Virus record (IMG/VR): IMGVR_UViG_3300028394_000083
Coordinates: 1-62,006 of that record
DNA from: a virus
Lineage: Duplodnaviria > Caudoviricetes
Direction: 5' to 3' (one strand)
Length of the DNA: 62,006 nt
Shown: positions 14,006-28,316 of the stretch, piece by piece
Numbering within the stretch: position 1 is the first letter of the stretch
How the letters are laid out: each line of letters opens with the position of its first letter
Position numbers and translations under genes: made by a program
The notes under the pieces: model-generated
What the model saw: the letters and a program-made list of their open reading frames with translations, nothing else
Databases searched by the model: none
Told to the model about the DNA's origin: nothing

Positions 14006-14024
14006 AATATTAAATGAAAAAATA

Positions 14025-14750: not shown

Positions 14751-14769
14751 TTAAAAATAATAAAAACAC

Positions 14770-14838
14770 TTGTCAATTTAAAAAAAATACCTATATTTGT
14801 AGGGTAATTAAAACTTTTAGAAAAAACTATATATTTAT
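14770..14838 (+). promoter_or_regulatory. tandem promoters for leader 1 and tRNA array 1
   Basis: TTG at 14770 with TATATTTG at 14792-14799 (host type); TATTTAT at 14832 (phage type). Confidence 0.65.
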
Positions 14839-14844
14839 AACAAG

Positions 14845-14955
14845 ATGAAAACAACTAATAAACATATGAACATTTGTAACCCGAGCATTCAGTGGTCGTT
14901 TAACGTGTATCGTACGCTTAAGTCGCATATTAGGGCATTTTCATTTATGAGTTGA
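14845..14955 (+). CDS. putative attenuator leader peptide 1 (36 aa)
   Basis: MKTTNKHMNICNPSIQWSFNVYRTLKSHIRAFSFMS; lies between promoter and terminator; codons mirror the downstream tRNAs. Confidence 0.75.
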   Translation: MKTTNKHMNICNPSIQWSFNVYRTLKSHIRAFSFMS

Positions 14956-14986
14956 TAAAGATTAACAAAAATAAAAAGGAATATAA

Positions 14987-15017
14987 GACCCGAACTAAAA
15001 ACAGTTCGGGTTTTTTT
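14987..15017 (+). terminator. attenuator terminator upstream of tRNA array 1
   Basis: gacccgaact-aaaaac-agttcgggtt with T7, ending 14 nt before tRNA-Thr. Confidence 0.88.
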
Positions 15018-15031
15018 ATACCCAAAAATTT

Positions 15032-15104
15032 GGTTCCTTAGTATAGTTTGGTAATATCCCGGCTTTGTAACCCGGAGTCATCAGTTCGACCCTGATAGGA
15101 ACCT
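15032..15104 (+). tRNA. tRNA-Thr(TGT)
   Basis: Cloverleaf; loop tttgtaa. Confidence 0.85.
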
Positions 15105-15118
15105 CAAAAAAAGAAAAA

Positions 15119-15130
15119 GTTCTTTGACAT
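15119..15130 (+). promoter_or_regulatory. boxA-like element
   Basis: GTTCTTTGACAT. Confidence 0.65.
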
Positions 15131-15144
15131 ATTGGCTTCATTAA

Positions 15145-15228
15145 GGAGAGATAATCACAGCGGCTTGTGACACCGTCTTGAAAACGGTTGGTACTGAAAG
15201 GTATGGGGATCGGCACCTCATCTCTCCT
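15145..15228 (+). tRNA. tRNA-Ser(TGA)
   Basis: accgt-cttgaaa-acggt; long variable arm. Confidence 0.85.
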
Positions 15229-15236
15229 CTGTAAAT

Positions 15237-15321
15237 TGCGGGGTAGACGAATTAGGCAAAGTCACCAGGTTTTGACCCTGGAGGTAAATTACCATTGGAG
15301 GTTCGATCCCTCCCCCCGTAG
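15237..15321 (+). tRNA. tRNA-Gln(TTG) with long variable arm
   Basis: ccagg-ttttgac-cctgg; extra arm ggt-aaatt-acc. Confidence 0.82.
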
Positions 15322-15332
15322 CAAAAAAATAA

Positions 15333-15403
15333 CGAGTGTGTGGTGTAATGGTTGCACAGGATGTTTGGGACATTCGGGAGACGTTCGATTCGTACACATT
15401 CGA
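15333..15403 (+). tRNA. tRNA-Pro(TGG)
   Basis: ggatg-tttggga-cattc; short T stem. Confidence 0.75.
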
Positions 15404-15465
15404 CAATCGTATAAAAAGATTTTGACTAAAAGTGATTTTTACGACAAATACAAATATTTATTAAT

Positions 15466-15999
15466 ATGGAGATAGATATTATAAAAAACAGTAAAACAAA
15501 ATCACAAGCAGTTCGTTCTATATATGGATACGATAATGGGACATCAAGAAGAAAGTTTGAAAAACTTATTAAAGAAAATGAGATTGATATTTCACATTTA
15601 ACTAAACAACCTTTTATCTATGAAAGAAAAATAAAAGATTGTCCTGTTTGCGGAAATAAATTTGAAACAATGGTTAATCATAAACGAGAAAAAACTACCT
15701 GTTCATACTCTTGTTCAAACACGTATTTTAGATCAGGAGAAAATAACCCAAATTATGGTAATTTGTCAGGGGAAAAAAATCATTACAGAAGAATCTGTTT
15801 TGAATACCATAAAAAAGAATGTGTTGTCTGCGGAGAAAATAAAATAGTTTCAGTACATCATTATGATGAAAACCATAATAACAACTCAATTGATAATTTA
15901 ATACCTTTATGTCCGACACATCATCAGTACGTTCATTCAAGATATAAAGATGAGGTTATAGAAAAAATTGATGATTATAGAAATAAAATAAACAAATAA
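15466..15999 (+). CDS. HNH endonuclease
   Basis: CVVC...VHHYDENHNNN...NLIPLCPTHH. Confidence 0.88.
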   Translation: MEIDIIKNSKTKSQAVRSIYGYDNGTSRRKFEKLIKENEIDISHLTKQPFIYERKIKDCPVCGNKFETMVNHKREKTTCSYSCSNTYFRSGENNPNYGNLSGEKNHYRRICFEYHKKECVVCGENKIVSVHHYDENHNNNSIDNLIPLCPTHHQYVHSRYKDEVIEKIDDYRNKINK

Positions 16000-16039
16000 A
16001 AATAAGTGTTATGGAAAGTGACAAGTATGACAAACAGAA

Positions 16040-16112
16040 CCCCTCGTAGCTTAGTCGGGAAAGCACCATACTTTTAATATGGGGAGAGTCGGATCGTAAC
16101 CGGCCGGGGGGA
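16040..16112 (+). tRNA. tRNA-Lys(TTT)
   Basis: ccata-cttttaa-tatgg. Confidence 0.88.
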
Positions 16113-16182
16113 CAAAAAAAATTTAGTAAAAAAGAACGATAATTACCAAAAAATGGTTATCTTCGTTCCAAGAAACTAAAAC

Positions 16183-16256
16183 ACACTCTTAGCTCAGATG
16201 GTAGTAGCGGTAGTATTACAAACTACAGGTCACAGGTTCGATCCCTGTAGAGTGTA
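16183..16256 (+). tRNA. tRNA-Val(TAC)
   Basis: gtagt-attacaa-actac. Confidence 0.88.
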
Positions 16257-16260
16257 CAAA

Positions 16261-16341
16261 GGGTACCAAAAGTCGTTCGGATACGGCAGCGAAACTGTAA
16301 ATTTCGTCCTCACGGGAGTGGTTCGAGTCCACTGGGACCCA
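16261..16341 (+). tRNA. tRNA-Tyr(GTA)
   Basis: cgaaa-ctgtaaa-tttcg; variable arm present. Confidence 0.82.
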
Positions 16342-16349
16342 CAATAAAT

Positions 16350-16422
16350 GGACAAGTAGCTCAATTGGTAGAGCAATCGGCTGTTAACCGATAGGTTGTA
16401 GGATCGTACCCTTCCTTGTCCG
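16350..16422 (+). tRNA. tRNA-Asn(GTT)
   Basis: atcgg-ctgttaa-ccgat. Confidence 0.9.
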
Positions 16423-16428
16423 CAATAA

Positions 16429-16501
16429 GTTCACGTAGCTCAATTGGTAGAGTGTTTGTCTGATACGCAAAAGGTAATGGGATCGTAACCCGTCGTGAAC
16501 A
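16429..16501 (+). tRNA. tRNA-Ile(GAT)
   Basis: tttgt-ctgatac-gcaaa. Confidence 0.9.
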
Positions 16502-16558
16502 CAAAAAGGGGAGTAACTTGTGTGGGTGCCCTAACTACTGCAGGAGTACCACACTCTA

Positions 16559-16645
16559 TGGAAGATAAACCTTGATGGAGATAGGGTCCGCCTGCTAAGC
16601 GAGACGTACCCGTAAGGGTATTTGGTTCGATTCCAATGTCTTCCT
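16559..16645 (+). tRNA. tRNA-Ser(GCT)
   Basis: Loop ctgctaa; variable arm taccc-gtaa-gggta. Confidence 0.82.
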
Positions 16646-16751
16646 CGATTAAAATCCGGAAATTTTCCGGATAGGATGACTTTTTTTCCGGATAGACATC
16701 TACAATTGAATAATCTATTAGGAAAATTTCCGGATAGATATAAAACAACAA

Positions 16752-16819
16752 CCCGTATGATCAGGGATCAAAGTTGGCTCATATCCGACTTGAGGTTGGT
16801 TCAAGTCCAACATACGGGA
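16752..16819 (+). tRNA. tRNA(CAT), elongator Met or Ile2, with minimal D arm
   Basis: gttgg-ctcatat-ccgac; perfect acceptor and T arms; 68 nt. Confidence 0.75.
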
Positions 16820-16826
16820 CTTATAT

Positions 16827-16900
16827 GGTGTATGTAGCTCAGTTGGTAGAGTGCCGTTCTGTGAAAGCGGAGGTCGTGGGATCGTGACCCATCATACACA
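16827..16900 (+). tRNA. tRNA-His(GTG)
   Basis: G-1 present; ccgtt-ctgtgaa-agcgg. Confidence 0.9.
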
Positions 16901-16901
16901 C

Positions 16902-17074
16902 AAAAGATGATAAGAAGCGTAGAATGACAGACGTGGAGAGACGTGTCGTAAGGGTACACACTAAGGATAGGTGTCCAATCTTAATTGTATTGATGTAATA
17001 ACCCAACTCTCTAATGGTGTGTGAAGCTTTGATAGAAGTAGCGGGATTCCTGATAAAGTCATTCATCATCTTTT
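16902..17074 (+). ncRNA. unidentified structured ncRNA within tRNA array 1
   Basis: Closing stems aaaagatgat/atcatctttt and gaatgac/gtcattc. Confidence 0.55.
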
Positions 17075-17116
17075 TTTGACATCCGAAGTCGGTCCCGAGC
17101 TAGGTCGGGCACTACT

Positions 17117-17188
17117 GCAAGACTAGTGTAATGGCTAACACGGATGATTCCAAACCATCAAATTTCTGTTCGACTCGGAAGTTTTGCG
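17117..17188 (+). tRNA. tRNA-Trp(CCA)
   Basis: Loop ttccaaa; cloverleaf. Confidence 0.82.
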
Positions 17189-17260
17189 CAAATTTTTCAA
17201 AAAAAATACATTAGAGTTCGATTTTGTTAAAGTGTGTGATATTTATATATAAAGGGTATT

Positions 17261-18169
17261 ATGTTTATATATAATTGTAAATTTTGTGGGGAAGTTGAAA
17301 TCAAAAGTTCTAAGCACGCGGGATCTCACGTAACTAATTGTTTAAAAAACCCAAATAGAGGTAAGTCATTTGAAAAACTTAAAGTTGCTGGAAAAACTAA
17401 TTCAATCGAAAAAAGAAACGATGCAATTATTAAATACAACAAAAACCCAAAAAAATGTAAGAATTGTGAATTACCAATATCTTACGACAAAAAAAATAAT
17501 AACTACTGCGGACATTCTTGTAGTGCTTCATATACAAATAAAAATAGAAAAACAAAAAAATATCAATTATCTGAAAAGGGATTGGAAAGTTTAAAACTTT
17601 CAGCAGAGAAGAGAAGAAAAAAATTAATAGAATTTTATAAAAAAAATCCAGAAAAGAAAAAACAGATAATAAAAAATTTAATAGAAAAAAACACCAAAAC
17701 AAGAGTTGAATTTATTTGTCCTGTTTGTGGTAAAATCTTAATGGTAACTGAAAATGAATTTAAAAAACGAAAATACTGTGGAGGTACTTGTAGAAATAAA
17801 ATAAATAATAAACAAATTTTTGGTACAAGATCGAAAGCTGAAGTTTATTTGGAAGAAACTTTGAAAAACAAATTTCCAAATTTAATGATGATGTTTAATG
17901 ATAGGGAACTATTAAATGGTAAAGAACTTGATGTTTATATCCCAAGTTTAAATTTAGCAATAGAATGGAATGGAATTTATCATTATAAAAAAATAAGGGA
18001 TGATGAATCTTTTGAAAAAACCACAAATAAAGACAAACAAAAAATATCTGATTGTGTCAAATTGAATATTGAACTATATGTGGTTAAAGATTTAACAAGT
18101 GGTAAGAAATTTATTAAAGAAGAAACAGAAAAAATTATTAAATTTGTAAAACAAAAAATACAAGAGTAG
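17261..18169 (+). CDS. Vsr/DUF559-like PD-(D/E)xK homing endonuclease with Zn fingers
   Basis: SKAE...ELDVYIP...AIEWNGIYH...D; several CxxC motifs. Confidence 0.8.
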   Translation: MFIYNCKFCGEVEIKSSKHAGSHVTNCLKNPNRGKSFEKLKVAGKTNSIEKRNDAIIKYNKNPKKCKNCELPISYDKKNNNYCGHSCSASYTNKNRKTKKYQLSEKGLESLKLSAEKRRKKLIEFYKKNPEKKKQIIKNLIEKNTKTRVEFICPVCGKILMVTENEFKKRKYCGGTCRNKINNKQIFGTRSKAEVYLEETLKNKFPNLMMMFNDRELLNGKELDVYIPSLNLAIEWNGIYHYKKIRDDESFEKTTNKDKQKISDCVKLNIELYVVKDLTSGKKFIKEETEKIIKFVKQKIQE

Positions 18170-18243
18170 TATAATGGTAAAACATTGGGGCCCGCGACCC
18201 CGAAGATACGACGTAGAGTTTGGTTCGATTCCCGTCTCTTGTG
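18160..18243 (+). tRNA. atypical tRNA (anticodon ambiguous CCG/CGC/GCG; possibly Arg)
   Basis: Acceptor acaagag/ctcttgt; arm tgggg-cccgcga-ccccg; weak T stem. Confidence 0.5.
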
Positions 18244-18249
18244 CAAAAA

Positions 18250-18325
18250 GGAACTATGGTGTAAGCATGGTGTGTCACGCTGGACTGAAAATCCAGAGGT
18301 TAGAGTTCGACTCTCTATGGTTCCG
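18250..18325 (+). tRNA. tRNA-Phe(GAA)
   Basis: ctgga-ctgaaaa-tccag. Confidence 0.88.
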
Positions 18326-18341
18326 CAAACAAATAGAAATA

Positions 18342-18797
18342 ATGAACAGAGTATTTAGAACGGTTAACGGTGAAACAATTCCTGATGTGGTAAAACATAC
18401 CTTAGATGTTCTGAAAGAATGTCCCTGGGTGGAAGTACACATCGGTACAGACTCACAAAACCACAGAAGAAGTACCGTGTATGTTACGGTAATAGCTTAT
18501 AGGTATGGGAATAGAGGTGTCCATTATATTCTTCACAAACAAAAAGTGAAAAAAATAAGAGATAAGTGGACACGTCTTTGGAATGAAGCCGATTATTCAA
18601 TTGAGGTTGCCGAATGGTTAACCAAAAAAGTAAAGGTGCAAGTTGAGATTGACTTAGATTATAATAGTCAAGAAAAACATTTCAGTTCAAAATTGGTTCA
18701 ACCAGTTGTTGGGTGGGCAACATCGTTGGGGTATAAAACAAACATTAAACCCGACAATCAAATTGCAACAAAGGCGGCAGATCACCACTGCCGTTAA
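18342..18797 (+). CDS. RNase H-like YkuK/DUF458 family protein
   Basis: IGTDSQ...RLWNEADYS...EIDLDYN...IKPD..ATKAADH; true start at 18342. Confidence 0.8.
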   Translation: MNRVFRTVNGETIPDVVKHTLDVLKECPWVEVHIGTDSQNHRRSTVYVTVIAYRYGNRGVHYILHKQKVKKIRDKWTRLWNEADYSIEVAEWLTKKVKVQVEIDLDYNSQEKHFSSKLVQPVVGWATSLGYKTNIKPDNQIATKAADHHCR

Positions 18798-18802
18798 TAT
18801 AA

Positions 18803-18874
18803 GGACCTATGGCCGAGAGATTTAGGTGCCGGTCTGCAAAACCGGTTAGATTGGTTTGATTCCAATTAGGTCCT
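18803..18874 (+). tRNA. tRNA-Cys(GCA)
   Basis: ccggt-ctgcaaa-accgg. Confidence 0.9.
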
Positions 18875-18883
18875 CAATAAAAT

Positions 18884-18964
18884 GCCTTCGTGGTGGAATG
18901 GTAGACACATCCGGCTTAGACCCGGATTCCGAAAGGAGTGAGAGTTCGAGTCTCTCCGAAGGTA
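18884..18964 (+). tRNA. tRNA-Leu(TAG)
   Basis: tccgg-cttagac-ccgga; variable arm present. Confidence 0.9.
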
Positions 18965-18975
18965 CAAAAAAGATT

Positions 18976-19014
18976 AATCCGTTATATGTTGTGAAACATT
19001 TGACGGATTTTTTT
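18976..19014 (+). terminator. terminator ending tRNA array 1
   Basis: aatccgtt...gacggatt followed by a T run. Confidence 0.65.
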
Positions 19015-19049
19015 ATATATTGATATATTTATATATAAAATAAAAAATT

Positions 19050-19556
19050 ATGAGAAAAATTATTAAATTAACAGAATCAGATTTAACAAGGATTGTTAAA
19101 CGTGTAATGAATGAAGGTGGGTACGCATCTATTGAAAAAGAAATGAAAACAAGCAGAATGGCATCTAAAGGGGTTACAGGTCTTTTTGGAATGATTGGTA
19201 AACTAATGATTGGGTTTGGTAAATTGAAAACAATGTTAAAAGGAGATTCATTTGAACATGCACAATATGAAATTGCTAGTGAATTAATGGATGATTGTTT
19301 AGATCTTAGAGAAACTTTGAGTATTTTAAAACAATTGGTTTCTTCATTTGAAAAAAGAGATATGAAATTACACAAAAGTGATTTTGAAGATTATGGTATT
19401 GATCTTGAATTTTTGTTAAATAGTTTAGAAAAAATCTACGATAAAGTTAGAGAGTTAGAAGAAATGGCTGAAGACGACGCAACAATAAAAAATCTTGGAG
19501 TGTTAGAAAGATCGTTGGATAAAATAGTAGATTTACTTGATAGTATTGAAGACTAA
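19050..19556 (+). CDS. leader-bearing hypothetical protein
   Basis: MRKIIKLTESDLTRIVKRVMNE; TATTTAT at 19026. Confidence 0.8.
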   Translation: MRKIIKLTESDLTRIVKRVMNEGGYASIEKEMKTSRMASKGVTGLFGMIGKLMIGFGKLKTMLKGDSFEHAQYEIASELMDDCLDLRETLSILKQLVSSFEKRDMKLHKSDFEDYGIDLEFLLNSLEKIYDKVRELEEMAEDDATIKNLGVLERSLDKIVDLLDSIED

Positions 19557-19567
19557 AATAAAATATT

Positions 19568-20023
19568 ATGAATAGAAGTTTCAGTAAAATAAGACACATC
19601 CAAGAATCCAATCTTAGATTAGAAAAAAGACTATTAAAAGAAGAGACTGATGAATTAAAAGATGATAAGTTGCAACAGATTATTGACATGGACCAAGAGT
19701 TTGATAACGACCCAACCTATAAAAGATACGAAAAGGTTTATACCAATAATAAATTAATGGGTATGATGAAAACTAGAATGGGTATGAGTTTAGATGATAT
19801 GGATGAAGACCAACTACTATCAATGCTCAAAACGGTTACATCGATGATGGGTGGTCGTGAAAAGAAAGAAAAACCTGAAATGACTCGTGAAATGATACTT
19901 AATCGTAAAGAAAGTATAATGGATATTGTAAGTCAGATAGAAGAAATGGCCGTTGAGGACAATGAGTTTGAATTGGCATCAAAATTAAGGGATTATAATA
20001 ATTTACTACAAAATTATAATTAA
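19568..20023 (+). CDS. leader-bearing protein with C-terminal UVR-like helix pair
   Basis: ...ESNLRLEKRLLKEE start; MAVEDNEFELASKLRD. Confidence 0.75.
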   Translation: MNRSFSKIRHIQESNLRLEKRLLKEETDELKDDKLQQIIDMDQEFDNDPTYKRYEKVYTNNKLMGMMKTRMGMSLDDMDEDQLLSMLKTVTSMMGGREKKEKPEMTREMILNRKESIMDIVSQIEEMAVEDNEFELASKLRDYNNLLQNYN

Positions 20024-20041
20024 TAAAATAAAAACAAAATT

Positions 20042-20305
20042 ATGAATAGATTAACAGAAAGAGACTTGTCAAGAATTGTTAGACAAGTTATTAAAGAAGA
20101 CAAAGATAAAAAAACTATGAATGACATACCTGATAGTTTTTTTAAAAGTTTTTTATCAAAAACTAGTGATATAATGACAAGTGAGGAGTTTTCTGAAATT
20201 GAAGATATTTTAGGAAAGAGAGTTGGTGCTAATGGTCAAGGTATGGGAGATGTTTTTGAAAAAATATTCATAGAAGCAAGAACAAGAACAAGAAGAAGAG
20301 ATTAA
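20042..20305 (+). CDS. leader-bearing hypothetical protein
   Basis: MNRLTERDLSRIVRQVIKE. Confidence 0.78.
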   Translation: MNRLTERDLSRIVRQVIKEDKDKKTMNDIPDSFFKSFLSKTSDIMTSEEFSEIEDILGKRVGANGQGMGDVFEKIFIEARTRTRRRD

Positions 20306-20306
20306 T

Positions 20307-20645
20307 ATGAAAAAAATAGTAAGACTAACAGAATCACAATTGATTAATGTGATTGAAAAAGTAATTAAAGAAGGGTCAATAGATAAATCAACAAAAGAAA
20401 AAGATCTTGATGTTAAAATGGAAAATATTAGAGATAAGATCAAAAATTTTATTAAATCAAAAGACTGTAAAGTAAAACAAGTTGGGACCGATTTTGAGAT
20501 ACATTGCGATGGAGAACATGTAGGACAAGTTATGTTTAGAAGAAATGCAATCACAATCAAAAAAGAAGGTAATAAATTCGGAAAAGATTTTAAATTCAAC
20601 GAAATGGGTGAAATTAAATCCGAACTTTCAAAAATTATTAAATAA
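20307..20645 (+). CDS. leader-bearing hypothetical protein
   Basis: MKKIVRLTESQLINVIEKVIKE. Confidence 0.78.
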   Translation: MKKIVRLTESQLINVIEKVIKEGSIDKSTKEKDLDVKMENIRDKIKNFIKSKDCKVKQVGTDFEIHCDGEHVGQVMFRRNAITIKKEGNKFGKDFKFNEMGEIKSELSKIIK

Positions 20646-20701
20646 AACTTGACACTTTTAAAAAGTATCATATATTTATAACAAAACAAATAAAAACGCA
20701 A

Positions 20702-20776
20702 ATGAAAAATTTACATATCATACTATTAGGCGGATTGGCGATAGCTGAGGATCGTTCCTTTAGGGAGGTGGTATGA
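20702..20776 (+). CDS. putative attenuator leader peptide 2 (24 aa)
   Basis: MKNLHIILLGGLAIAEDRSFREVV; TATTTAT at 20673; 3' end complementary to the terminator 5' arm. Confidence 0.75.
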   Translation: MKNLHIILLGGLAIAEDRSFREVV

Positions 20777-20800
20777 TAATTTAATACATAATAAATTTTG

Positions 20801-20831
20801 AAACCCATCTCCAAAAGAGGTGGGTTTTTTT
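20801..20831 (+). terminator. attenuator terminator upstream of tRNA array 2
   Basis: aaacccatctc-caaaa-gaggtgggttt with T run, then boxA at 20832. Confidence 0.88.
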
Positions 20832-20917
20832 GTTCTTTGAAATATTGGTGGAAAAAAGTTTAAAAAAGATTTGGCAGATCAAAATAGATTACATATCTTT
20901 GTAGAAATAAAAAACAT

Positions 20918-21271
20918 ATGGGGATTTATATCTATACTTACAAGAAAAAATTTGATAAAAACGCAACACTCAATGGTGAGAAGGTTGTTGTTGGAGTGGC
21001 GACATTTCTTTGCAAATCAACTATGGGTGGTAACTACACACCGGCTGAGAATCGTGAGATGAATAGAGCATGGAATCTTACAAAGGATTTCCAACCTGAG
21101 TATATCACGTTTGATGGTGAGAACGTATACAAAAACAACAAGTTCGGTATGTGGAATGATGGTTCAGGTTTTTATGGTGGTATTAATCACGAAAATGATT
21201 TTGTTGGGGTATTAAAAAAAATAGGTAGAAAATATGTTGTAAAAAATCTTACAAAAGTTTTGGCAAATTAA
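20918..21271 (+). CDS. hypothetical protein with own host-type promoter
   Basis: TATCTTTG at 20894. Confidence 0.75.
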   Translation: MGIYIYTYKKKFDKNATLNGEKVVVGVATFLCKSTMGGNYTPAENREMNRAWNLTKDFQPEYITFDGENVYKNNKFGMWNDGSGFYGGINHENDFVGVLKKIGRKYVVKNLTKVLAN

Positions 21272-21322
21272 AAGAGATTACATATCTTTGTAAGACAAAT
21301 AAGGAAAAAAGGTTCTTTGAAA
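21258..21322 (+). promoter_or_regulatory. host-type promoter plus boxA
   Basis: TTTG...TATCTTTG (21283), then GTTCTTTGAAA (21312). Confidence 0.7.
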
Positions 21323-21434
21323 TATTAAAAATATGTGGTTGTAAGAAACGGGAAACTCGTAAAGTGCATTAACCTGTTGACTCAAGATGGTGAAACGAGA
21401 GTTTGAGTCAACTACTAAACTACAAATGGTATAT

Positions 21435-21506
21435 CGCAGGATAGAGCAGTGGTAGCTCGCAAGGCTCATAACCTTGAGGTCGGAGGTTCGAACCCTTCTC
21501 CTGCAA
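21435..21506 (+). tRNA. tRNA-fMet(CAT)
   Basis: C1:A72 mismatch; caagg-ctcataa-ccttg. Confidence 0.9.
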
Positions 21507-21589
21507 CAACTAATAGCCAACCAAGCTTTACTACGATACGGGTAATACCTGTGGGTTAGGGGTGACGGTCAGGAGAGACTGACGATTAC

Positions 21590-21670
21590 GCTGACGTACC
21601 GGTGGATGCTTATATCATCTATGCCCGTAGAGGAAAGTTTTAAACGTTGGTTCGAGTCCAACCGTCAGTA
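21590..21670 (+). tRNA. atypical tRNA-Ile(TAT): no D arm, long variable region
   Basis: Acceptor gctgacg/cgtcagt; tggatg-cttatat-catcta; T arm gttgg-ttcgagt-ccaac. Confidence 0.6.
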
Positions 21671-21886
21671 CGGGAGTGTATACAGTAGAGTTCAACTTGA
21701 GAAGGATGTTAACACACTTAAAAGGGGGTAACAAGAGATCAGGTCGTTTAGTAGTTTTGACGAGAAAAACTGACGTTTTGTGGAGATAGTTTGTCGGACA
21801 AACTTACACCCGTGATGTTAGTAGGTTTGATCACCTCATTCACGTAAACAGTGACGAAACAAATCCCAACGAAGTAGTCACACTTT

Positions 21887-21958
21887 GCAGGTATCGTATA
21901 ATGGTTATTACTCCAGACTTCCAATTTGGAGATGAGTGTTCGATTCATTCTACCTGCA
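21887..21958 (+). tRNA. tRNA-Gly(TCC)
   Basis: ccaga-cttccaa-tttgg. Confidence 0.88.
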
Positions 21959-22053
21959 CGATGAGTAATATCCTATTGGTTATTTTTTTTAATATTTAAC
22001 TAAAAGTTTTGGTTATAAACTGATTTTTAACTCATTTCCAGATATTTATATAT

Positions 22054-22881
22054 ATGAGATGGGATAAAAATAAAGAAGAAATTTTGAAGAAATTAATTTC
22101 AGATGGTAAAACATATAAAGAAATTAGTGAAATAATGGTTACCACATTTAGATCTATAACTAATAAATGTCTTAGGCTAGGTATTAAAAGTAAGAAAGTA
22201 GAATCTAATGAGATTGTTAATTGCAATAACTGCGGTAAAAGTTTTATATCATATAAAAGAGATAATAGAAAATTTTGTAATTATAGTTGCAGTGCTCAGT
22301 TTAATAATACCGGTAGAGTTTTATCCAATGAAACTAAAAATAAAATCACTGATGGTGTAAAAAAATATAATAAAGAAAATAACATTGAAAAAGAAAGGTC
22401 AAGTTGCTTGACTTGTGGTAAAAAAGTTAATAAACCACACAACATATATTGTTCTCGTGAATGTAAAGACAAATGCCCAATTTATAAAGAAAAATTGAGT
22501 AAAAATATGAGGGATAAATTTAAATTAAATCCTGAATTACATCCGAATAGGTTGTGTGCTGGAATTAAGGAGTCTTACCCCGAACAATTTTTTAGGGAGT
22601 TTTTAGAAAAAAATGGACTTGTAAAAAATTTAGATTTTATACAACAATATAAAATTAGTTTATATTACGTTGATTTCTTTTTTCCGAAATTGAATCTATG
22701 TGTTGAAATTGATGGTGAAAGATTTCACGATGAGAAAAATGTTAAGGAAATTTTAAGAGAAAAGTACATAAAAGAAAAATACGAACTTAAAAGATATAAA
22801 GTTAAAATTTTACTAAAAAAAGAATATGAAAATGATATTTTATATATCATTAATAATGTAAAAAAAGATTTGGTAGATTGA
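22054..22881 (+). CDS. DUF559/Vsr-like homing endonuclease with Zn fingers
   Basis: ESYPE...YVDFFF...VEIDGERFH. Confidence 0.8.
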   Translation: MRWDKNKEEILKKLISDGKTYKEISEIMVTTFRSITNKCLRLGIKSKKVESNEIVNCNNCGKSFISYKRDNRKFCNYSCSAQFNNTGRVLSNETKNKITDGVKKYNKENNIEKERSSCLTCGKKVNKPHNIYCSRECKDKCPIYKEKLSKNMRDKFKLNPELHPNRLCAGIKESYPEQFFREFLEKNGLVKNLDFIQQYKISLYYVDFFFPKLNLCVEIDGERFHDEKNVKEILREKYIKEKYELKRYKVKILLKKEYENDILYIINNVKKDLVD

Positions 22882-22904
22882 AATAAAATACCTATCTTTG
22901 TATT

Positions 22905-23085
22905 ACAAATAAACCTTACAGAAGTCCGAATAGCGCGGATGAAAGGAACCTTGGCTCTCATAGGATCGCAACCTTTACGGAGAGTTTGAATGTCCCAAAG
23001 TACTCTGTTTAGGACCCTGCTCTGATGTGCACGTCAACAGGTGATGGGGAACAAACCATCAGTAAAATCCGTAAAAACGTTTTAT
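22905..23085 (+). ncRNA. unidentified ncRNA candidate
   Basis: GC-richer non-coding tract with hairpins after the TATCTTTG promoter at 22893. Confidence 0.4.
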
Positions 23086-23092
23086 TTTTTAT

Positions 23093-23162
23093 GGGCCTGA
23101 TGCCGACGGCAGGCTGACTGATTTGCGATCAGATCATTTGGGTTCGATTCCCACAGTGTCCA
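23093..23162 (+). tRNA. tRNA-Ala(TGC), atypical
   Basis: G3:U70 pair; ctga-tttgcga-tcag; bulged acceptor, tiny D loop. Confidence 0.7.
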
Positions 23163-23234
23163 CAAAAAAAGTTTGAAAAAGATTTGGCAGATTGAAATAG
23201 ATTACATATCTTTGTAGAACAAAAATAAAGAACT

Positions 23235-23516
23235 ATGACAAACACAGAGACAATTAAAACCGTAGGTTTAAAAATTACAAAAATTGAAGGATACGATTAT
23301 TGTTTGACAGGGTACCCAAACAAAAACACAATCCGTAATTGGGAAGATGCGTATGAGTTTGAAAGTTTTGTACAAGATGTTTTAAAGATTGAAGGTGAGT
23401 TTGATTCTGAAAGTGGTCAGTTCTACGTGTACTTCAAAACTAAACAAAAGGCAACTGCCGCTTTGAATAAGATTGAAAAACATTTCAAAAAAGTTGGTGA
23501 AATGTTAGGTTTGTAA
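23235..23516 (+). CDS. hypothetical protein with own host-type promoter
   Basis: TATCTTTG at 23207. Confidence 0.75.
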   Translation: MTNTETIKTVGLKITKIEGYDYCLTGYPNKNTIRNWEDAYEFESFVQDVLKIEGEFDSESGQFYVYFKTKQKATAALNKIEKHFKKVGEMLGL

Positions 23517-23524
23517 GAGTTAAT

Positions 23525-23598
23525 CGCCCGTTGGACAAGTGATTGAAGTCGCTTCCCTTTCACGGAAGAGATCATGGGTTTGAATCCCATACGGGTGA
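23525..23598 (+). tRNA. tRNA-Glu(TTC)
   Basis: cttcc-ctttcac-ggaag. Confidence 0.9.
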
Positions 23599-23599
23599 C

Positions 23600-23810
23600 A
23601 ATGAGTGAGAGATACTCAAGATGTTTTTAAGTTCATACAAAACTTAACGGAGCTGGTACTATCCACGTTAAGGGGTACTCTTTGGGAATCAGGCTGGAAG
23701 ATCCTCCTCGCCCCCAAGTAAGGGTTGACTTTTAAGTGGTAAGACACGTTGGGTTTTCAAATAGAAAAACTGTGAATATCTACTCACCATTAATCTCAGG
23801 TGGGGAAACT
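23600..23810 (+). ncRNA. unidentified ncRNA candidate
   Basis: Non-coding tract between tRNA-Glu and tRNA-Asp; ends in taatctcaggt like the large ncRNA. Confidence 0.45.
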
Positions 23811-23812
23811 TT

Positions 23813-23883
23813 GGTCCATTGGTGAAATATTATCATATCTGACTGTCTATCAGAAGTCCTCGGAGAGTAACCGGGATGAACCG
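23813..23883 (+). tRNA. tRNA-Asp(GTC)
   Basis: tctga-ctgtcta-tcaga; divergent T loop. Confidence 0.8.
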
Positions 23884-23905
23884 CACAAAGTGTTCTTTTA
23901 AAATA

Positions 23906-24046
23906 TTGATAGTGGTTTTCCCCACCTCAACGGATGTCGACAATCCAGAGTGGATCAGGAATTCATCACCCTTTCTGCCGGGGCCCTGATAAAAGTCAGA
24001 AGAAGCAGTTAAGATTGGAGCGAGAAGGGTACTCCATCACTATCAA
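23906..24046 (+). ncRNA. unidentified structured ncRNA
   Basis: 9-bp closing stem ttgatagtg/cactatcaa; shares cctgataaa(a)gtca with 16902-17074. Confidence 0.55.
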
Positions 24047-24053
24047 AATATTT

Positions 24054-24168
24054 AGTCAGGTGGCGGAATGGTAGACGCTAAGAAAGAGATGAACTTTGTA
24101 TCTAAGTGTAAACACATGATGATACGCTAAAGCATAATCTCATACAGGTTCGAGTCCTGTCCTGACTA
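24054..24168 (+). ncRNA. tRNA-Leu-like shell with ~60-nt insert replacing the anticodon and variable arms
   Basis: agtcaggtggcggaatggtagacgc ... acaggttcgagtcctgtcctgacta. Confidence 0.7.
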
Positions 24169-24204
24169 CGTGGGAAAGATCTATCCCGAAAACAGAACAT
24201 GGAT

Positions 24205-24305
24205 CACAAACACGTAAACCTAAGTACCTGTACAGCGGTGAGTAACGGGCTAAGTTATATACAATTCCTCGGAGCTGGGAGTAGAATGCTTAGGAGCGTG
24301 TTTTT
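24205..24305 (+). ncRNA. unidentified structured RNA candidate
   Basis: Nested stems aaacacg/cgtgttt and cctaagta/tgcttagg. Confidence 0.45.
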
Positions 24306-24394
24306 AAAATATAAAAAACTATGACACCATTATTGTTTCTATTATTTATTATGTTTATCTTTTTAGTAAGAAAACGAAGATAAAATTATTGGTT

Positions 24395-24510
24395 GGTCAG
24401 GAGTGTAATGAGGCACGGTGCCGAGTCCCCAAGACCAATAGTCCCAGACACTTGTGGGTTCTATGGAGTCGTAAGGTTGCTCATTGTGGGTTCGACTCCC
24501 ACCCTGACAA
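24395..24510 (+). ncRNA. tRNA-like shell with long insert
   Basis: gtcagg/cctgac acceptor, D arm, perfect T arm gtggg-ttcgact-cccac, ~65-nt insert. Confidence 0.6.
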
Positions 24511-24549
24511 CACTTGACATTATTAAATTAATGCCTTATTATTATACAA

Positions 24550-24623
24550 AACCGGGTAGCTCAGCTGGTAGAGCAATCCTTTTTAAACAGGACGTGTCAT
24601 TGGTTCAATCCCTTTCCCGGTTT
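24550..24623 (+). pseudogene. degenerate tRNA (anticodon unclear)
   Basis: Good acceptor and D arm; 8-nt anticodon loop; broken T stem. Confidence 0.55.
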
Positions 24624-24647
24624 TTTTATTTATAAAATTAAAATATT

Positions 24648-24854
24648 ATGAAAAAGTTTCTTTTATTGGTTTTGTCTTATGTTCTGTCATTCAGTATTGT
24701 TTGGATTGGTTTGGGGTTGTTCAAATACTATTTGGAATCAGAATCATCAATCGGAACTTTTTTAATTGGATTAGTTGGTTTTTTCGTTGCCATTAATCCC
24801 GCGATGGATGTTTGGGAAAAATTATTCAAACGCTGGTTTAAAATCAAAGAATAA
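24648..24854 (+). CDS. small two-TM membrane protein
   Basis: Two hydrophobic segments. Confidence 0.65.
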   Translation: MKKFLLLVLSYVLSFSIVWIGLGLFKYYLESESSIGTFLIGLVGFFVAINPAMDVWEKLFKRWFKIKE

Positions 24855-25011
24855 TAATTTAATAGTATGATCCACTCAAGAGGAGTGTTGGAACGGAGTT
24901 TGTTAATCTATTTATTAAAAAAAACATTATGGAAGTAATTATCGCATGTTTAGTACCGATCGCGTTGATAGGTATTATGGTAGTATCTTATTTGACCTAC
25001 AAGGGGAGATA

Positions 25012-25035
25012 AAAAAAGGGACCGAAGTCCCTTTA
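25012..25035. terminator. bidirectional terminator
   Basis: A7-gggac-cgaa-gtccc-ttt between convergent genes. Confidence 0.75.
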
Positions 25036-25037
25036 TG

Positions 25038-25646
25038 TTATTTGATATCTGTTGACTCTATTAGAGTATATGAAAACTTGTTTCCGTGAATTTTAGATGC
25101 CTTCTTACATAAAGACATAAACACATCAAAGTCTTTTACTCTTTTAAATACTTGACAACCCTCACTCCAATTTTCAACCCAAGTTGAGTCTTGACCTGCT
25201 TTGTGAATGTTAATACCAAACATACCCGTATCTTTAAGTATTTCATCAAAAGTAAGATCTTTATTACCGTCTCTCCAAACAGTCACATTACCTAATCTTT
25301 GACAAAGAGCGTCATACTTACCTTGATGTTTATCAATCGCCCATACACTTCTGTACTGACCCGGTACTAATCTAGCAACCCCCTTTTTGTTATGGAATTG
25401 TTGAACCCCTTTTTTACCAGGATCGGTGGTTGCCATCCAACAATAGAATTGTTCTACACCTTTCTCATCTTTAAATGTTAATGTAAGACAATCGTCAAAC
25501 ACATTTGTTACTTTTTTTGCAACTGACGGTGAGTTATTTCTTACCCCTACGATATTCACATCGTAACCTTTGTTTGCGGTATCTTCAAACCATTTATATC
25601 CTTTGGATTTAACTGACGTTTCAATTTGTTCTTTTGTATAACACAT
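25038..25646 (-). CDS. YkuD/L,D-transpeptidase-fold peptidoglycan enzyme
   Basis: GINIHKAG...WSEGCQV (H...S-x-G-C motif). Confidence 0.7.
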   Translation of the reverse strand: MCYTKEQIETSVKSKGYKWFEDTANKGYDVNIVGVRNNSPSVAKKVTNVFDDCLTLTFKDEKGVEQFYCWMATTDPGKKGVQQFHNKKGVARLVPGQYRSVWAIDKHQGKYDALCQRLGNVTVWRDGNKDLTFDEILKDTGMFGINIHKAGQDSTWVENWSEGCQVFKRVKDFDVFMSLCKKASKIHGNKFSYTLIESTDIK

Positions 25647-25849
25647 AATAATTAATTTTACTATAAATATTATCTATTTTGAAAAGTAAAACATATTTAT
25701 TAAGTAAAGATTATATATGTCTAGTTGGGTTGAGTTAGGTGTTGATTATACAAAAAATAAAACACAATTAGACGATGATGTGATAAATAATGTTATGATT
25801 CATGTGTCATCGATAGGTGGAGTTTTAACTAACCACTTAGAACATTAAA

Positions 25850-26728
25850 TTATAGACTTAATAACATATCTATTAACTCCTGTTGAGGGAACATATCCAC
25901 CTTACCACGAATAACGTTTGTGTGTGAATACATACCTGGTGTTGAGTTGGCTTTTGCTAAATCTAAAACATCAAATCCGTCAGCCCCTTTTTCTTTTACC
26001 CATTGGACTAACCCAACTCTTGGATCTATGTTATATTTATTAGCACAATATAAAATCCAATTTCTTAATACTCTAATTTGTTCGTCTGAGTAACGGTGCC
26101 AAAATTGAAAACCTCTAAACGGTTTTGCTAATTTTACGATTTGTGATGGATCTGCTGGTGTATTTACATATGTCTTACCATTTACAATCTGACCCATATT
26201 ACATACTTCGATAGCCACAGAATTTCTGTGCATTACTGAGTTACCTGTACCGGTGTGCCATCCATATCCTCCTTCAGGAAAACATTGGATTAACTCACCA
26301 TCAAATTTTATATCTCCATTTTTAACCGATTGACCACCTAATATAAATTCTGTAGCGACATTACCTCTATTATCTCTTGCCCACATATCAGCGACTTGAT
26401 ATGGGTTTTCCCATCCTGCCGTGTGGTGTAAAAATATCCATTGTTTTTTAACTGGACCTTTAAAGTACGTGTCTTCAGGCATGTAATGTTTAATAATTTG
26501 TAATGCGGATTGTACTTCACTATTTTCAGCATTATCTGTATTTAAAATTCCCATAACCAACCACGTATTTTTTCCTACAACACCATCTACTGTTAACCCC
26601 GATTTCTTTTGAAACGATTTAACCGCAGTTTCAGTTTTTGATCCAAAGTCACCATCAACCGTGATTTTTAAAAATTCTTGTAAGGTTCTTACGGATTCCC
26701 CTTTACTCCCTTTTTTTAATACTTCCAT
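25850..26728 (-). CDS. endolysin: peptidoglycan-binding domain plus N-acetylmuramoyl-L-alanine amidase
   Basis: LKKGSKG...VDGDFG...FQ...VDGVVG; IFLHHTAG, SVAIEVC, SH...KVD. Confidence 0.88.
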   Translation of the reverse strand: MEVLKKGSKGESVRTLQEFLKITVDGDFGSKTETAVKSFQKKSGLTVDGVVGKNTWLVMGILNTDNAENSEVQSALQIIKHYMPEDTYFKGPVKKQWIFLHHTAGWENPYQVADMWARDNRGNVATEFILGGQSVKNGDIKFDGELIQCFPEGGYGWHTGTGNSVMHRNSVAIEVCNMGQIVNGKTYVNTPADPSQIVKLAKPFRGFQFWHRYSDEQIRVLRNWILYCANKYNIDPRVGLVQWVKEKGADGFDVLDLAKANSTPGMYSHTNVIRGKVDMFPQQELIDMLLSL

Positions 26729-26817
26729 AATAATAAGTTTTTATATAATTATCTATTATTTTAAAATTTTATAAAGAGTCAATATTTATTAATAAATAAA
26801 CTTTTAAATTTTCAATT

Positions 26818-26985
26818 ATGAAACTTACAAAAGAACAAGTATTAGGGATCGTTAGACACACATTAACATTTGTTGGTGGTATTGTTGTAATGAAAGGTCT
26901 TGTTGATGAGACGGTCGTTACTGAAATCATCGGTGGTGTTATGACGTTAGTCGGAACTATTTGGTCAGTTATTAACAAAAAATAA
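26818..26985 (+). CDS. putative small holin (55 aa, not in ORF track)
   Basis: MKLTKEQVLGIVRHTLTFVGGIVVMKGLVDETVVTEIIGGVMTLVGTIWSVINKK; two TM segments; next to endolysin; TATTTAT at 26783. Confidence 0.7.
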   Translation: MKLTKEQVLGIVRHTLTFVGGIVVMKGLVDETVVTEIIGGVMTLVGTIWSVINKK

Positions 26986-27057
26986 TTTTGTTAAATTAAT
27001 ACTTAACCCCCATAAATAGTGGGGGTTTTTTAATTTATAATATATTTATTAATTAGT

Positions 27058-27666
27058 ATGGAAAATTATGTAGGAATAGTGATCGCATTTATAACAGGTG
27101 TGATAGGACCAATCTTGGTTCTTTATATAAAGAGTAAGTTGGAGAAGAAGGAGAAACCTGATATGGTTAAGGAAACTTTAAGGGTTTCGGAGTTGGTTAC
27201 AAACAAAATAGAACATATAAAAGAAGAGTTTAATGCCGATAGAGTTTGGATAACTCAGTTTCACAACGGAGGAAATTTTTATCCAACAGGTAAATCAATG
27301 GCAAAGTTTTCAATCATGTATGAAACGGTACATCCAGGTGTTCAATCAGTACAAAGTAACTTTCACAATATACCCGTTAATTTATTTTCAAAATCAATCA
27401 ACCAACTATTAAGTAACGACGTTATAGAAATACCGGACTATAAAGACGAGACAATTGCGACTTATGGTTTAAAATATATTGCAGAAGATACTGGATGTAA
27501 ATCAGGTTATTTATTTGCTATTAAAACTATTGATGATAGATTTATTGGGACTTTAGGTGTTGAATATACAAAAAGAAAAACGAAATTAAATATTGAATCA
27601 ATAAATCATTTATTAGTACACGCAACATCACTTGGTGGTGTTTTAATGACTCACTTACAACAATGA
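27058..27666 (+). CDS. N-terminal TM plus GAF-like domain protein (T4 holin T-like architecture)
   Basis: Single TM; ADRVWITQFHNGG...FIGTLGVEY; within lysis cluster. Confidence 0.6.
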   Translation: MENYVGIVIAFITGVIGPILVLYIKSKLEKKEKPDMVKETLRVSELVTNKIEHIKEEFNADRVWITQFHNGGNFYPTGKSMAKFSIMYETVHPGVQSVQSNFHNIPVNLFSKSINQLLSNDVIEIPDYKDETIATYGLKYIAEDTGCKSGYLFAIKTIDDRFIGTLGVEYTKRKTKLNIESINHLLVHATSLGGVLMTHLQQ

Positions 27667-28316
27667 GACAACAAATTATAGAATCACTTATTGGTAGAAT
27701 TACAAACCGGTTAATCAACGAAAGAAAGTCAGATGAGTTATCAATAAAACTTTCCCGAATGGTTATCAAGCAATTTAAAAAAGATGAGGACTTTGAGTTG
27801 TATGATTTAAGATTTGACAGGGGAGATGAGTATGCGGTCTTTGATTTCAAGTGTTATTTTTTGGAGGATATTGATTTGGACGATCCATTCTCAATACATG
27901 CTGAAGCAGATATGGAAGAGATATATATGGAGATTACATTCAACCCACAACATTTTCCTGAGAGTATGAGTGATTTGGTTGCTGAAGTGAAAGAAACCAT
28001 TGAACACGAGTTAGAACACGTTGAGCAACAAAATTTTGAGGATATGGAATTTGAACGTGAAGATGATATTGAGGACGATGAAGAATACAATTTTAAATAC
28101 CTGACATCTAACATAGAAATACCGGCATATGTAAGAGGGTTAATCAAAAGAGCCAACACCAAAAAAATATCATTATCTGATGCTATGGAAGAATGGTTTA
28201 AAGAAAACAAAAGAAATTTTAAAGAGTCTAAAAAAGATTGGCCAAGAGTTAAAAAAGTTTGGATGAAATATGCTTCTGAAATGAGAGGAAAAGAAAAAAT
28301 CAAAAAATTTAAATAA
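27663..28316 (+). CDS. leader-bearing HExxH metallopeptidase-like protein
   Basis: ...RLINE start; EHELEH...EIPAY. Confidence 0.65.
   Translation: MRQQIIESLIGRITNRLINERKSDELSIKLSRMVIKQFKKDEDFELYDLRFDRGDEYAVFDFKCYFLEDIDLDDPFSIHAEADMEEIYMEITFNPQHFPESMSDLVAEVKETIEHELEHVEQQNFEDMEFEREDDIEDDEEYNFKYLTSNIEIPAYVRGLIKRANTKKISLSDAMEEWFKENKRNFKESKKDWPRVKKVWMKYASEMRGKEKIKKFK

Follow-up and report, generated by a model that had tools for sequence, protein, structure and literature searches.

Structure and conservation of the second leader unit

The stretch of DNA analysed here (the window) is IMG/VR record IMGVR_UViG_3300028394_000083, 62,006 nt in length with a G+C content of ~31% and an estimated completeness of 21%, from a lake phage whose host is probably a member of the Bacteroidota based on its promoters of the TAnnTTTG type, a consensus that we take to be typical of that phylum. 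The window carries two blocks of tRNA genes, each preceded by a short unit of promoter, open reading frame (ORF) and terminator, and we focus on the second of these (unit 2; Table 1), a candidate attenuator, that is, a terminator whose use would depend on translation of the short leader ORF upstream of it. The parts that the original prediction had named for unit 2, i.e., the motif TATTTAT at 20673, the ORF at 20702-20776, the terminator and the boxA-like motif at 20832, are all where it placed them.

At 11/12, the leader-2 promoter shares the top score with a single other site of the 57 promoter-like ones between 14000 and 26000, and TATTTAT lies within ATATATTTATAACAA (20670-20684). TTGACAC and TATATTTATA are invariant or nearly so across 38 aligned copies of the unit (below), and the composite ACTTTT-N9-14-TATAWTTATAA occurs only at leader 2 and leader 1 (2 matches vs. 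0 expected). As a separate observation, sites within one mismatch of TATATTTATAA are enriched in the window (28 sites vs. 13.9 +/- 3.7 expected, with 0/100 shuffles reaching 28; e.g., 7768, 9136, 19024, 27041, 40423 and 51053), and several of them lie a few nt 5' of ORF starts. These sites, which differ from the TATCTTTGTA class, would represent either another class of promoter or an element of the translation start region.

Relatives of unit 2 were collected by protein-guided searches with the two flanking ORFs, which gave 16 loci, 8 of them with the element, and by scanning viral contigs with an 18-nt pattern from the ORF start, which gave 95 stretches. We retained frames starting MKNLHI with 22 or 24 codons (one contig-edge copy was omitted, and the other pattern matches fall within unrelated genes), leaving 59 instances and 38 distinct 212-nt copies, i.e., the window and 37 others, on uncultured viral contigs. 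A frame of 22 or 24 codons is present in 38/38 selected copies, an openness that is partly built in because the selection fixes the first 14 nt and demands an intact frame; two indels of one codon each, both in frame, separate the two length classes. Synonymous differences are frequent among the copies (e.g., GGA/GGT/GGC in L042, L046 and L085), and the edges of a minimum-spanning tree carry 21 synonymous and 36 non-synonymous changes in the 24-codon class and 11 and 13, respectively, in the 22-codon class. The corresponding non-synonymous:synonymous ratio-like value is 0.43 and 0.30 in frame and 0.74-2.81 in the other two frames (the row of this count for the 36-codon leader 1 was disregarded, as two of its subfamilies are not alignable codon for codon). 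Taken as patterns of substitution, these values are moderate evidence that the leader-2 ORF is translated. The last four residues vary as protein (R/K/M/V, E/K/R/G/V, V/M/R and V), and it appears from the alignments that what is conserved at these codons is the RNA pairing described next, not the peptide.

The 12-pair terminator stem (20800-20828) contains 5 G-C pairs and has a core of -11.9 kcal/mol, and the terminator is present in 37/38 distinct copies (36/37 relatives). It is absent from L093 (399-610), where the leader-2 ORF is intact and a boxA-like motif lies 22 nt past the stop codon, and which offers a ready-made, natural "constitutive" control variant. The minimum-free-energy (MFE) fold of 20683-20840 (z-score -2.96) combines the terminator with a 12-bp hairpin between 20716-20727 and 20767-20778, and the antiterminator is absent from it. 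This hairpin encloses most of the leader-2 ORF and contains its stop codon, and its 3' strand overlaps the antiterminator strand by 5 nt. A hairpin spanning the ORF and including the stop codon is predicted in 34/34 distinct leader RNAs, and in the 22-codon class it covers the antiterminator strand only partly (P 0.24-0.47). The 8-bp antiterminator that had been proposed, GGAGGTGG (20764-20771) with CCATCTCC (20805-20812), is present, and region 2 is the top upstream partner of the terminator arm in the window (-13.0 vs. -5.9 kcal/mol for the runner-up). In the whole 62,006 nt, 12-mers able to pair at -13 kcal/mol or lower with the 5' arm of the terminator form 15 clusters, including region 2 and the terminator's own 3' arm.

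Table 1. Features of the two leader units and of tRNA block 2 (window coordinates)
Feature	Position	Strand	Details
Sister unit 1	14813-15018	+	Promoter motif 14813-14840; 36-codon ORF 14845-14955; terminator 14988-15011 and T-run
tRNA-Thr of unit 1	starts 15032	+	Behind the unit-1 terminator
Leader-2 promoter	20649-20681	+	TTGACA 20649-20654, 16-nt spacer, TATATT 20671-20676, inside conserved TATATTTATAA
Leader-2 ORF	20702-20776	+	24 codons and TGA; peptide MKNLHIILLGGLAIAEDRSFREVV
Region 1	20716-20727	+	5' strand of the ORF-spanning hairpin (codons 5-9); MFE fold
Region 2	20764-20778	+	Antiterminator 5' strand GGAGGUGG 20764-20771 and hairpin 3' strand 20767-20778; includes stop codon 20774-20776
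Intrinsic terminator	20800-20835	+	5' arm 20800-20811, 3' arm 20817-20828, then T-run
Antiterminator 3' strand	20805-20812	+	CCAUCUCC; overlaps terminator 5' arm
boxA-like motif	20832-20846	+	GTTCTTTGAAATATT; exact repeat at 21312, one-mismatch copy at 15119
Downstream promoter	20871-20903	+	TTGGCA, 17-nt spacer, TATCTT, plus TATCTTTGTA; can bypass attenuator
117-aa ORF	20918-21271	+	Between attenuator and tRNAs; no family match; homologues in 12 viral contigs
Second bypass promoter and boxA-like copy	21260-21326	+	Promoter 21260-21292; boxA-like copy 21312-21326
tRNA block 2	21435-24624	+	ARAGORN/Rfam; ORFs and RNAs inserted between tRNAs
tRNA-Met(CAT)	21435-21507	+	ARAGORN
tRNA-Ile(TAT)	21578-21671	+	ARAGORN; non-canonical, 94 nt
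tRNA-Gly(TCC)	21887-21959	+	ARAGORN
tRNA-Glu(TTC)	23525-23599	+	ARAGORN
tRNA with 8-nt anticodon loop	24549-24624	+	ARAGORN anticodon "ttaa"; Rfam tRNA 42.1 bits

Covariation of the antiterminator

Covariation of the antiterminator among homologues, whose absence the original prediction had named as refuting it, is found. In 32/32 parsed copies, the strongest pairing of the terminator arm with upstream sequence begins 9-13 nt ahead of the stop codon, at -11.5 to -14.9 kcal/mol (a count that omits L042, L046, L085, L064 and L079), and the second-best partner is weaker in every one of them. Terminators of several sequence types are used, and the last ORF codons change along with the terminator type. 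The 37 copies reduce to 15 haplotypes of ORF tail and terminator arm, of which 7 (25 copies) pair at 8/8 positions and 8 (12 copies) at 7/8, and in a permutation test the observed mean pairing was reached in 12/10,000 trials. A change from G-C to A-U occurred twice on separate backgrounds (L020 and L031), and the two main types of terminator differ by U-A vs. G-C, a difference seen again in L095.

For the formal count we used an alignment (A2) with 33 distinct rows. Here, 94.3% of the 264 antiterminator cells are paired (88.4 +/- 1.1 in shuffles; 0/500 reach the observed value), 4/8 pairs change on both sides (3/500 shuffles), and the covariation score is 0.239 vs. 0.143 when shuffled (0/500 reach it), a significance that such shuffles overstate, to the detriment of the argument, because the copies are related. 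Sliding the partner by 1-3 columns leaves 47-70% of the cells paired. By the same measure the terminator helix has 98.7% of its cells paired and a covariation score of 0.249, i.e., in this alignment the antiterminator covaries about as well as the terminator helix itself.

Dependence of the fold on ribosome position

To represent a ribosome we masked 30 nt (from -15 to +14 of the A site, an assumed footprint) and read out the mean pair probability of the terminator stem. For the full window transcript, P(terminator) is 0.97 without a ribosome. It drops to 0.21-0.29 when the A site is placed on codons 6-11, recovers to 0.49-0.77 over codons 12-14, and is back at 0.96-0.97 between codon 15 and the stop codon. 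That is, at equilibrium the antiterminator is favoured with the A site on codons 6-11 and the terminator when the RNA is ribosome-free or the ribosome sits at the end of the ORF, which reproduces the switch logic of the original prediction, including the return of the terminator with a ribosome at the stop. Among the 37 copies, P(terminator) falls to 0.5 or less at some codon within 5-14 in 20 and to 0.6-0.8 in 5, and with a ribosome on the last codons it is ~0.9 or more in all 37. Dinucleotide-shuffled leaders were switch-like in 0/80 cases for the window, 6/80 for L004 and 0/80 for L020.

Equilibrium folding is a strict criterion since real attenuators form their antiterminator before the 3' arm of the terminator exists. 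A truncated-transcript model of unit 2 was tried as well and set aside: free and stalled states were not separated by it, the arm being paired upstream in free RNA too (mean 0.86), and values of at least 0.7 when stalled plus at most 0.3 at the stop were reached by only 10/37 copies.

Leader composition and the tRNA arrays

Codons 6-17 of leader 2 encode I I L L G G L A I A E D, residues that correspond to the syntenic array of the relatives, i.e., Leu-TAA, Met, Ile-TAT, Gly-TCC, Ala-TGC, Glu and Asp. The window's leader contains 12 consecutive residues that all belong to the set L, M, I, G, A, E and D, a run equalled in 0/300,000 windows sampled from 44 ORFs (~11,000 distinct windows), and the amino acids of all array-2 tRNAs called by ARAGORN are present in leader 2 at 35/37 loci. 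At the level of codons, ATC, CTA and GGC have no standard match to array-2 anticodons by wobble rules. The tRNA identities that had been matched to the leader stood in part: Ile-TAT, Gly-TCC and Glu-TTC are called in the window, and Ala-TGC and Asp-GTC, which had also been listed, and Leu-TAA, listed only as Leu-like, are called by ARAGORN only in relatives. Neither ARAGORN nor Rfam calls Asp-GTC or a canonical Leu-TAA in the window; an Ala-TGC-like element at 23093-23162 is a sub-threshold Rfam tRNA (22.9 bits vs. 29) with an anticodon read by eye, and few of the relatives' tRNAs match the window by blastn-short.

Array 1 has the order Thr, Gln, Pro, Lys, Val, Tyr, Asn, Ile, His, [Arg, Arg], Trp, Phe, Cys and Leu(TAG), and the amino acids of all its called tRNAs are present in leader 1 at 15/15 loci. 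Leader 1 (34-36 residues, four diverged subfamilies, 15 variants) contains only 0-2 A/G/D/E residues; no sampled 36-residue window (0/300,000) is free of G, D and E, and under a model of independent residues the chance of zero A/G/D/E in 36 residues is 4.9e-5. The proposed reciprocal partition of codons between the two leaders is therefore strong for leader 1, whose avoidance of A/G/D/E extends over 15 relatives, and one-sided for leader 2, because the lack of T, C and Y is not conserved: the relatives' leader 2 contains all three. Residues of leader 2 further include K, N, H, S and V.

Sister unit 1

Unit 1 is kept in 15 distinct relatives, with unit 2 lying 3-6 kb further downstream, and in all its copies a tRNA follows ~15-20 nt past the T-run. 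The window's leader 1 offers no convincing antiterminator, and here the original prediction, which had described two attenuators of the same layout, was not borne out. As an equally clear attenuator, leader 1 was rejected: its best terminator-arm partner in the window's subfamily reaches only -6.7 kcal/mol, the equilibrium P(terminator) is ~1 at every ribosome position in 12/15 variants, and the truncated-transcript model gives a weak trend (0.4 vs. 0.1-0.2). Because of the weak partner, the flat profile and the weak trend, we do not claim an antiterminator for the window's leader 1. Separately, in leader 1 of the window (14845-14955) and of L005, L087, L033 and others, the start region AUGAAAA pairs with UUUUCAU near the 3' end of the ORF, enclosing it, a predicted structure that might gate initiation of the leader itself. 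The Rfam family Thr_leader scores 23.6 bits at unit 1, well below its gathering score of 55.

Context downstream of the terminator

Among 46 distinct contexts, the recurrent order of block 2 is Leu(TAA), [Phe], Met(CAT), Ile(TAT), Gly(TCC), [Ala(TGC)], Glu(TTC), Asp(GTC), [Arg(TCT)]. Thirty-six distinct contexts (35 relatives and the window) are long enough to be classed by what follows the leader. In 11/36, the terminator and boxA-like motif are followed by tRNA-Leu(TAA) 26-32 nt past the T-run with no TAnnTTTG promoter between, so that relatives with a tRNA directly behind these elements, which the original prediction had suggested looking for, do exist. A TAnnTTTG promoter followed by a boxA-like motif stands ahead of the tRNA in 9/36, with 2 more of this type in which no tRNA is called; 13/36, including the window, have the boxA-like motif, a promoter and an inserted ORF in that order; and 1/36 (L093) lacks the terminator. 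A boxA-like motif lies between terminator or promoter and tRNA-Leu(TAA) in 20 tRNA-adjacent contexts. The likeness of GTTCTTTGAAATATT to the rrn boxA consensus is presumed.

The host-type promoters about which a caveat had been raised exist, with TATCTTTGTA occurring at 20894, 21283, 22893 and 23207, and the array is also fed by the promoters at 20871-20903 and 21260-21292. Regulated genes with no promoter of their own are found in 11/36 contexts and not in the window. Because a promoter-plus-ORF module and a second promoter have been inserted past its terminator, the window's attenuator can add to, and not gate, tRNA transcription. Differing promoter-plus-ORF modules are inserted at this same spot behind the boxA-like motif in L006, L020, L024, L059, L062, L064, L079 and L088, and the site seems to be a hotspot for gene insertion.

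A proposed mechanism and its rivals

We consider it likely, though well short of certain, that unit 2 is a ribosome-mediated (leader-peptide) transcription attenuator heading the phage's second tRNA block, and that the phage probably makes more block-2 tRNAs when ribosomes read their codons slowly. Under this model, transcription would start at ~20683 from the TTGACA/TATATT promoter, and the 24-codon leader would be translated as RNA polymerase nears the terminator. Without a ribosome, region 1 (20716-20727) and region 2 (20767-20778) would pair, the terminator would form and transcription would stop; a ribosome at the last codons would mask region 2, again allowing the terminator and the same stop. 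A ribosome lingering with its A site at about codons 5-14 (Ile, Ile-AUA, Leu, Leu-UUA, Gly, Gly, Leu-UUG, Ala, Ile-AUA) would instead cover region 1 and leave GGAGGUGG free to pair with CCAUCUCC in the terminator 5' arm, so that polymerase reads through, crosses the boxA-like element and enters the tRNAs, in the ancestral order Leu-UAA, Met, Ile-UAU, Gly-UCC, Ala-UGC, Glu and Asp. The net effect would be negative feedback, with slow decoding of the leader codons giving more of the matching tRNAs.

Several observations weigh against this model. In the folding, 12/37 copies keep the terminator at 0.9 or more for every ribosome placement at equilibrium, and 3 copies fail to favour it even when ribosome-free. 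The weight of the covariation is lessened because a purine tract facing a pyrimidine tract pairs in several registers, and the L003, L108, L033, L035 and L029 haplotypes, all singletons, show a mismatch resembling uncompensated recombination. The composition of leader 2 is less striking when taken as a whole, since 9.3% of random windows equal its 15/24 in-set residues and 14% contain all seven amino acids. We also looked for leader residues that change with array content from one locus to the next and rejected this idea, as only the statement that the array is a subset of the leader holds, and leaders retain residues after the loss of a tRNA (e.g., W in L005). Copies with a broken start or frame are invisible to a search that fixes the first 14 nt of the ORF. 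A TAnnTTTG promoter lies past the terminator in 24/36 contexts (13 + 9 + 2), and the window has two promoters and the 117-aa ORF between the terminator and the first tRNA. Finally, the sequences show the anatomy of the unit, its conservation, the covarying antiterminator, the dependence of the fold on the ribosome footprint, the synteny with the tRNAs and the match in composition; beyond these, the model needs the leader to be translated, ribosome and polymerase to be coupled in the host, and the switch to respond to tRNA supply, all of which we infer.

The rival that survives best, which we think unlikely but deserving of serious attention, is that unit 2 is a stand-alone small gene or small RNA (sRNA), i.e., a 22-24-aa peptide or a ~150-nt transcript with a constitutive terminator, and that the tRNAs are made from leak-through and from their own promoters. 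An sRNA or micro-gene, too, would consist of a promoter followed by ~150 nt and a terminator, and trans-acting attenuator transcripts and leader peptides have been reported for rnTrpL and peTrpL (PMC6614838, PMC7298713). The moderate purifying selection on the peptide would suit such a gene, yet its last four residues are unconserved as protein while their nucleotides follow the terminator arm. Likewise, the promoter past the terminator in 24/36 contexts fits this rival, but in 11/36 the first tRNA has no other promoter, and every unit-1 copy has its tRNA right behind the T-run. The copies without an equilibrium switch and the lack of a clear antiterminator in the window's leader 1 speak for a small gene or sRNA as well; against it, a free-standing peptide predicts no match between composition and array, and no Rfam family is found at 20640-20840 at E up to 1.

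We regard as much less probable that the hairpin is a structure for processing or for loading antitermination factors (boxB-boxA-like), with an ORF that only loads ribosomes or protects the 5' end of the tRNA transcript. A hairpin followed by a boxA-like motif does recur at the array head, and this rival can also point to L093, which has leader and boxA-like motif and no hairpin, and to nine relatives in which a promoter stands between hairpin and boxA. Because of that intervening promoter, we assign the boxA to the tRNAs and not to the hairpin. Against it, 7-9 G-C-rich pairs followed by 5-7 U have the form of an intrinsic terminator, and a loading structure leaves unexplained both the covarying alternative pairing with the last ORF codons and the composition match. 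A chance origin, in which a short frame, a terminator and purine/pyrimidine complementarity just happen to precede tRNA genes, we find barely credible: short ORFs are plentiful in AT-rich DNA (183 of at least 20 aa overlap 15000-28000) and promoter-like sites are not enriched (57 vs. 48 expected), but frame, terminator, pairing and synteny are all kept in 38 distinct copies, and the shuffle and sampling controls (for terminator-arm pairing sites, switch-like folding and composition runs) also argue against chance.

The transcript data at hand weigh neither for nor against the model. Two metatranscriptome runs contain small shares of the stretch (0.08 and 0.06). One RNA-library contig of X23 spans 20678-20875 and bridges the terminator, although contigs give no ends or levels and DNA carry-over is possible; another, of X24, extends from upstream DNA into the leader, again with possible DNA carry-over.

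Relation to known systems

The sole match from a megablast of 20300-24700 against 50,697 phage records covered 60 nt of a tRNA from a single uncultured phage. A search of 14000-26000 with Rfam at E up to 1 gave no family at unit 2 (20640-20840), and for the flanking ORFs (20307-20645, 20918-21271 and 23235-23516) neither Pfam, at its curated cut-off, nor PHROG gave a match.

Leaders that sense more than one amino acid are known from ilvGMEDA (Ile/Leu/Val) and thr (Thr/Ile), and other leaders include trpL, hisL, leuL and pheL. Unit 2 resembles these enterobacterial amino-acid-operon attenuators in its promoter-proximal short ORF, its 1:2, 2:3 and 3:4 segments and its intrinsic terminator, in having the stop codon in or beside segment 2 and the regulatory codons in or just past segment 1, and in that more than one amino acid would be sensed. 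It differs from them in that it regulates phage tRNA genes and not biosynthetic enzymes, its signal would be tRNA supply or decoding speed instead of amino-acid supply, its codons are mostly single or double over 6-7 amino acids with no single-residue runs, and it has a boxA-like element past the terminator and no match to an Rfam leader family. With pheST (the pheM leader) and T-boxes, unit 2 would share the principle that decoding or tRNA status feeds back through a choice between terminator and antiterminator; however, the pheM leader controls a synthetase whereas unit 2 precedes tRNAs, and T-boxes bind uncharged tRNA directly and need no ORF, whereas unit 2 lacks T-box features (none in Rfam). 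Compared to rrn-type boxA antitermination (loading of NusB/NusE), the shared trait is an GTTCTTTGA-type motif just upstream of an untranslated stable-RNA operon, but the motif of unit 2, a putative boxA, follows a terminator and not directly a promoter.

Unit 2 would differ from known leader-peptide attenuation in controlling phage tRNA genes; we found no paper on leader-peptide attenuation of tRNA genes in PMC open-access and bioRxiv. The nearest published parallel is the trn operon of Anabaena sp. PCC 7120. This accessory tRNA array is reported to be induced under translational stress (PMC8421152, PMC10272220) and controlled via promoter repeats and a repressor (PMC8421152). PMC8421152 contains no occurrence of "attenuat-", "leader peptide" or "terminator", and PMC10272220 none of "attenuat-", "leader peptide", "small ORF" or "ribosome stalling". 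What the two systems would share is an accessory tRNA array switched on when translation is impaired, cellular there vs. phage-borne here.

Other features of the tRNA region

The tRNA with an 8-nt anticodon loop belongs to a unit (24514-24624) with its own TTGACA-N17-TATTAT promoter and no leader; similar "???" tRNAs occur in relatives, and it could be a frameshift or stop-codon suppressor. A full-length Rfam freshwater-1 RNA (RF02979; 83.7 bits vs. gathering 72, E 9e-19) lies inside block 2 at 23006-23067 (+), ~100 nt 3' of the promoter-like TATCTTTGTA at 22893, a context which suggests a phage stable RNA co-transcribed with the tRNAs. A 275-aa ORF in the same block (22054-22881, +) carries a DUF559 domain (Vsr-like endonuclease), matches an HNH endonuclease of PHROG and, by these similarities, looks like a homing endonuclease. 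Outside the block, 16560-16644 gives a weak tRNA-Sec-like match (35.7 bits vs. 47).

Implications

Phage tRNA arrays are commonly viewed as passive supplements to codon usage and, lately, as replacements for tRNAs destroyed by the host; to our knowledge, how their expression is controlled is largely unknown. If unit 2 works as proposed, it would extend attenuation of the trp/his type from amino-acid supply to tRNA supply and from cells to viruses, and would take it to hosts (presumably Bacteroidota) in which transcription-translation coupling has barely been studied. It would also be a small, naturally occurring device for sensing how fast chosen codons are decoded. A more tentative idea, which we consider possible and on balance doubtful, is that the two leaders are the phage's gauges of decoding capacity, firing when the host tRNA pool fails through defence-related cleavage or depletion or through host shut-off. 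Were this so, each block of replacement tRNAs would be induced only when its own codon set slows, and the tRNA arrays would be an inducible counter-defence with block-specific sensing rather than a constitutive supplement to codon usage.

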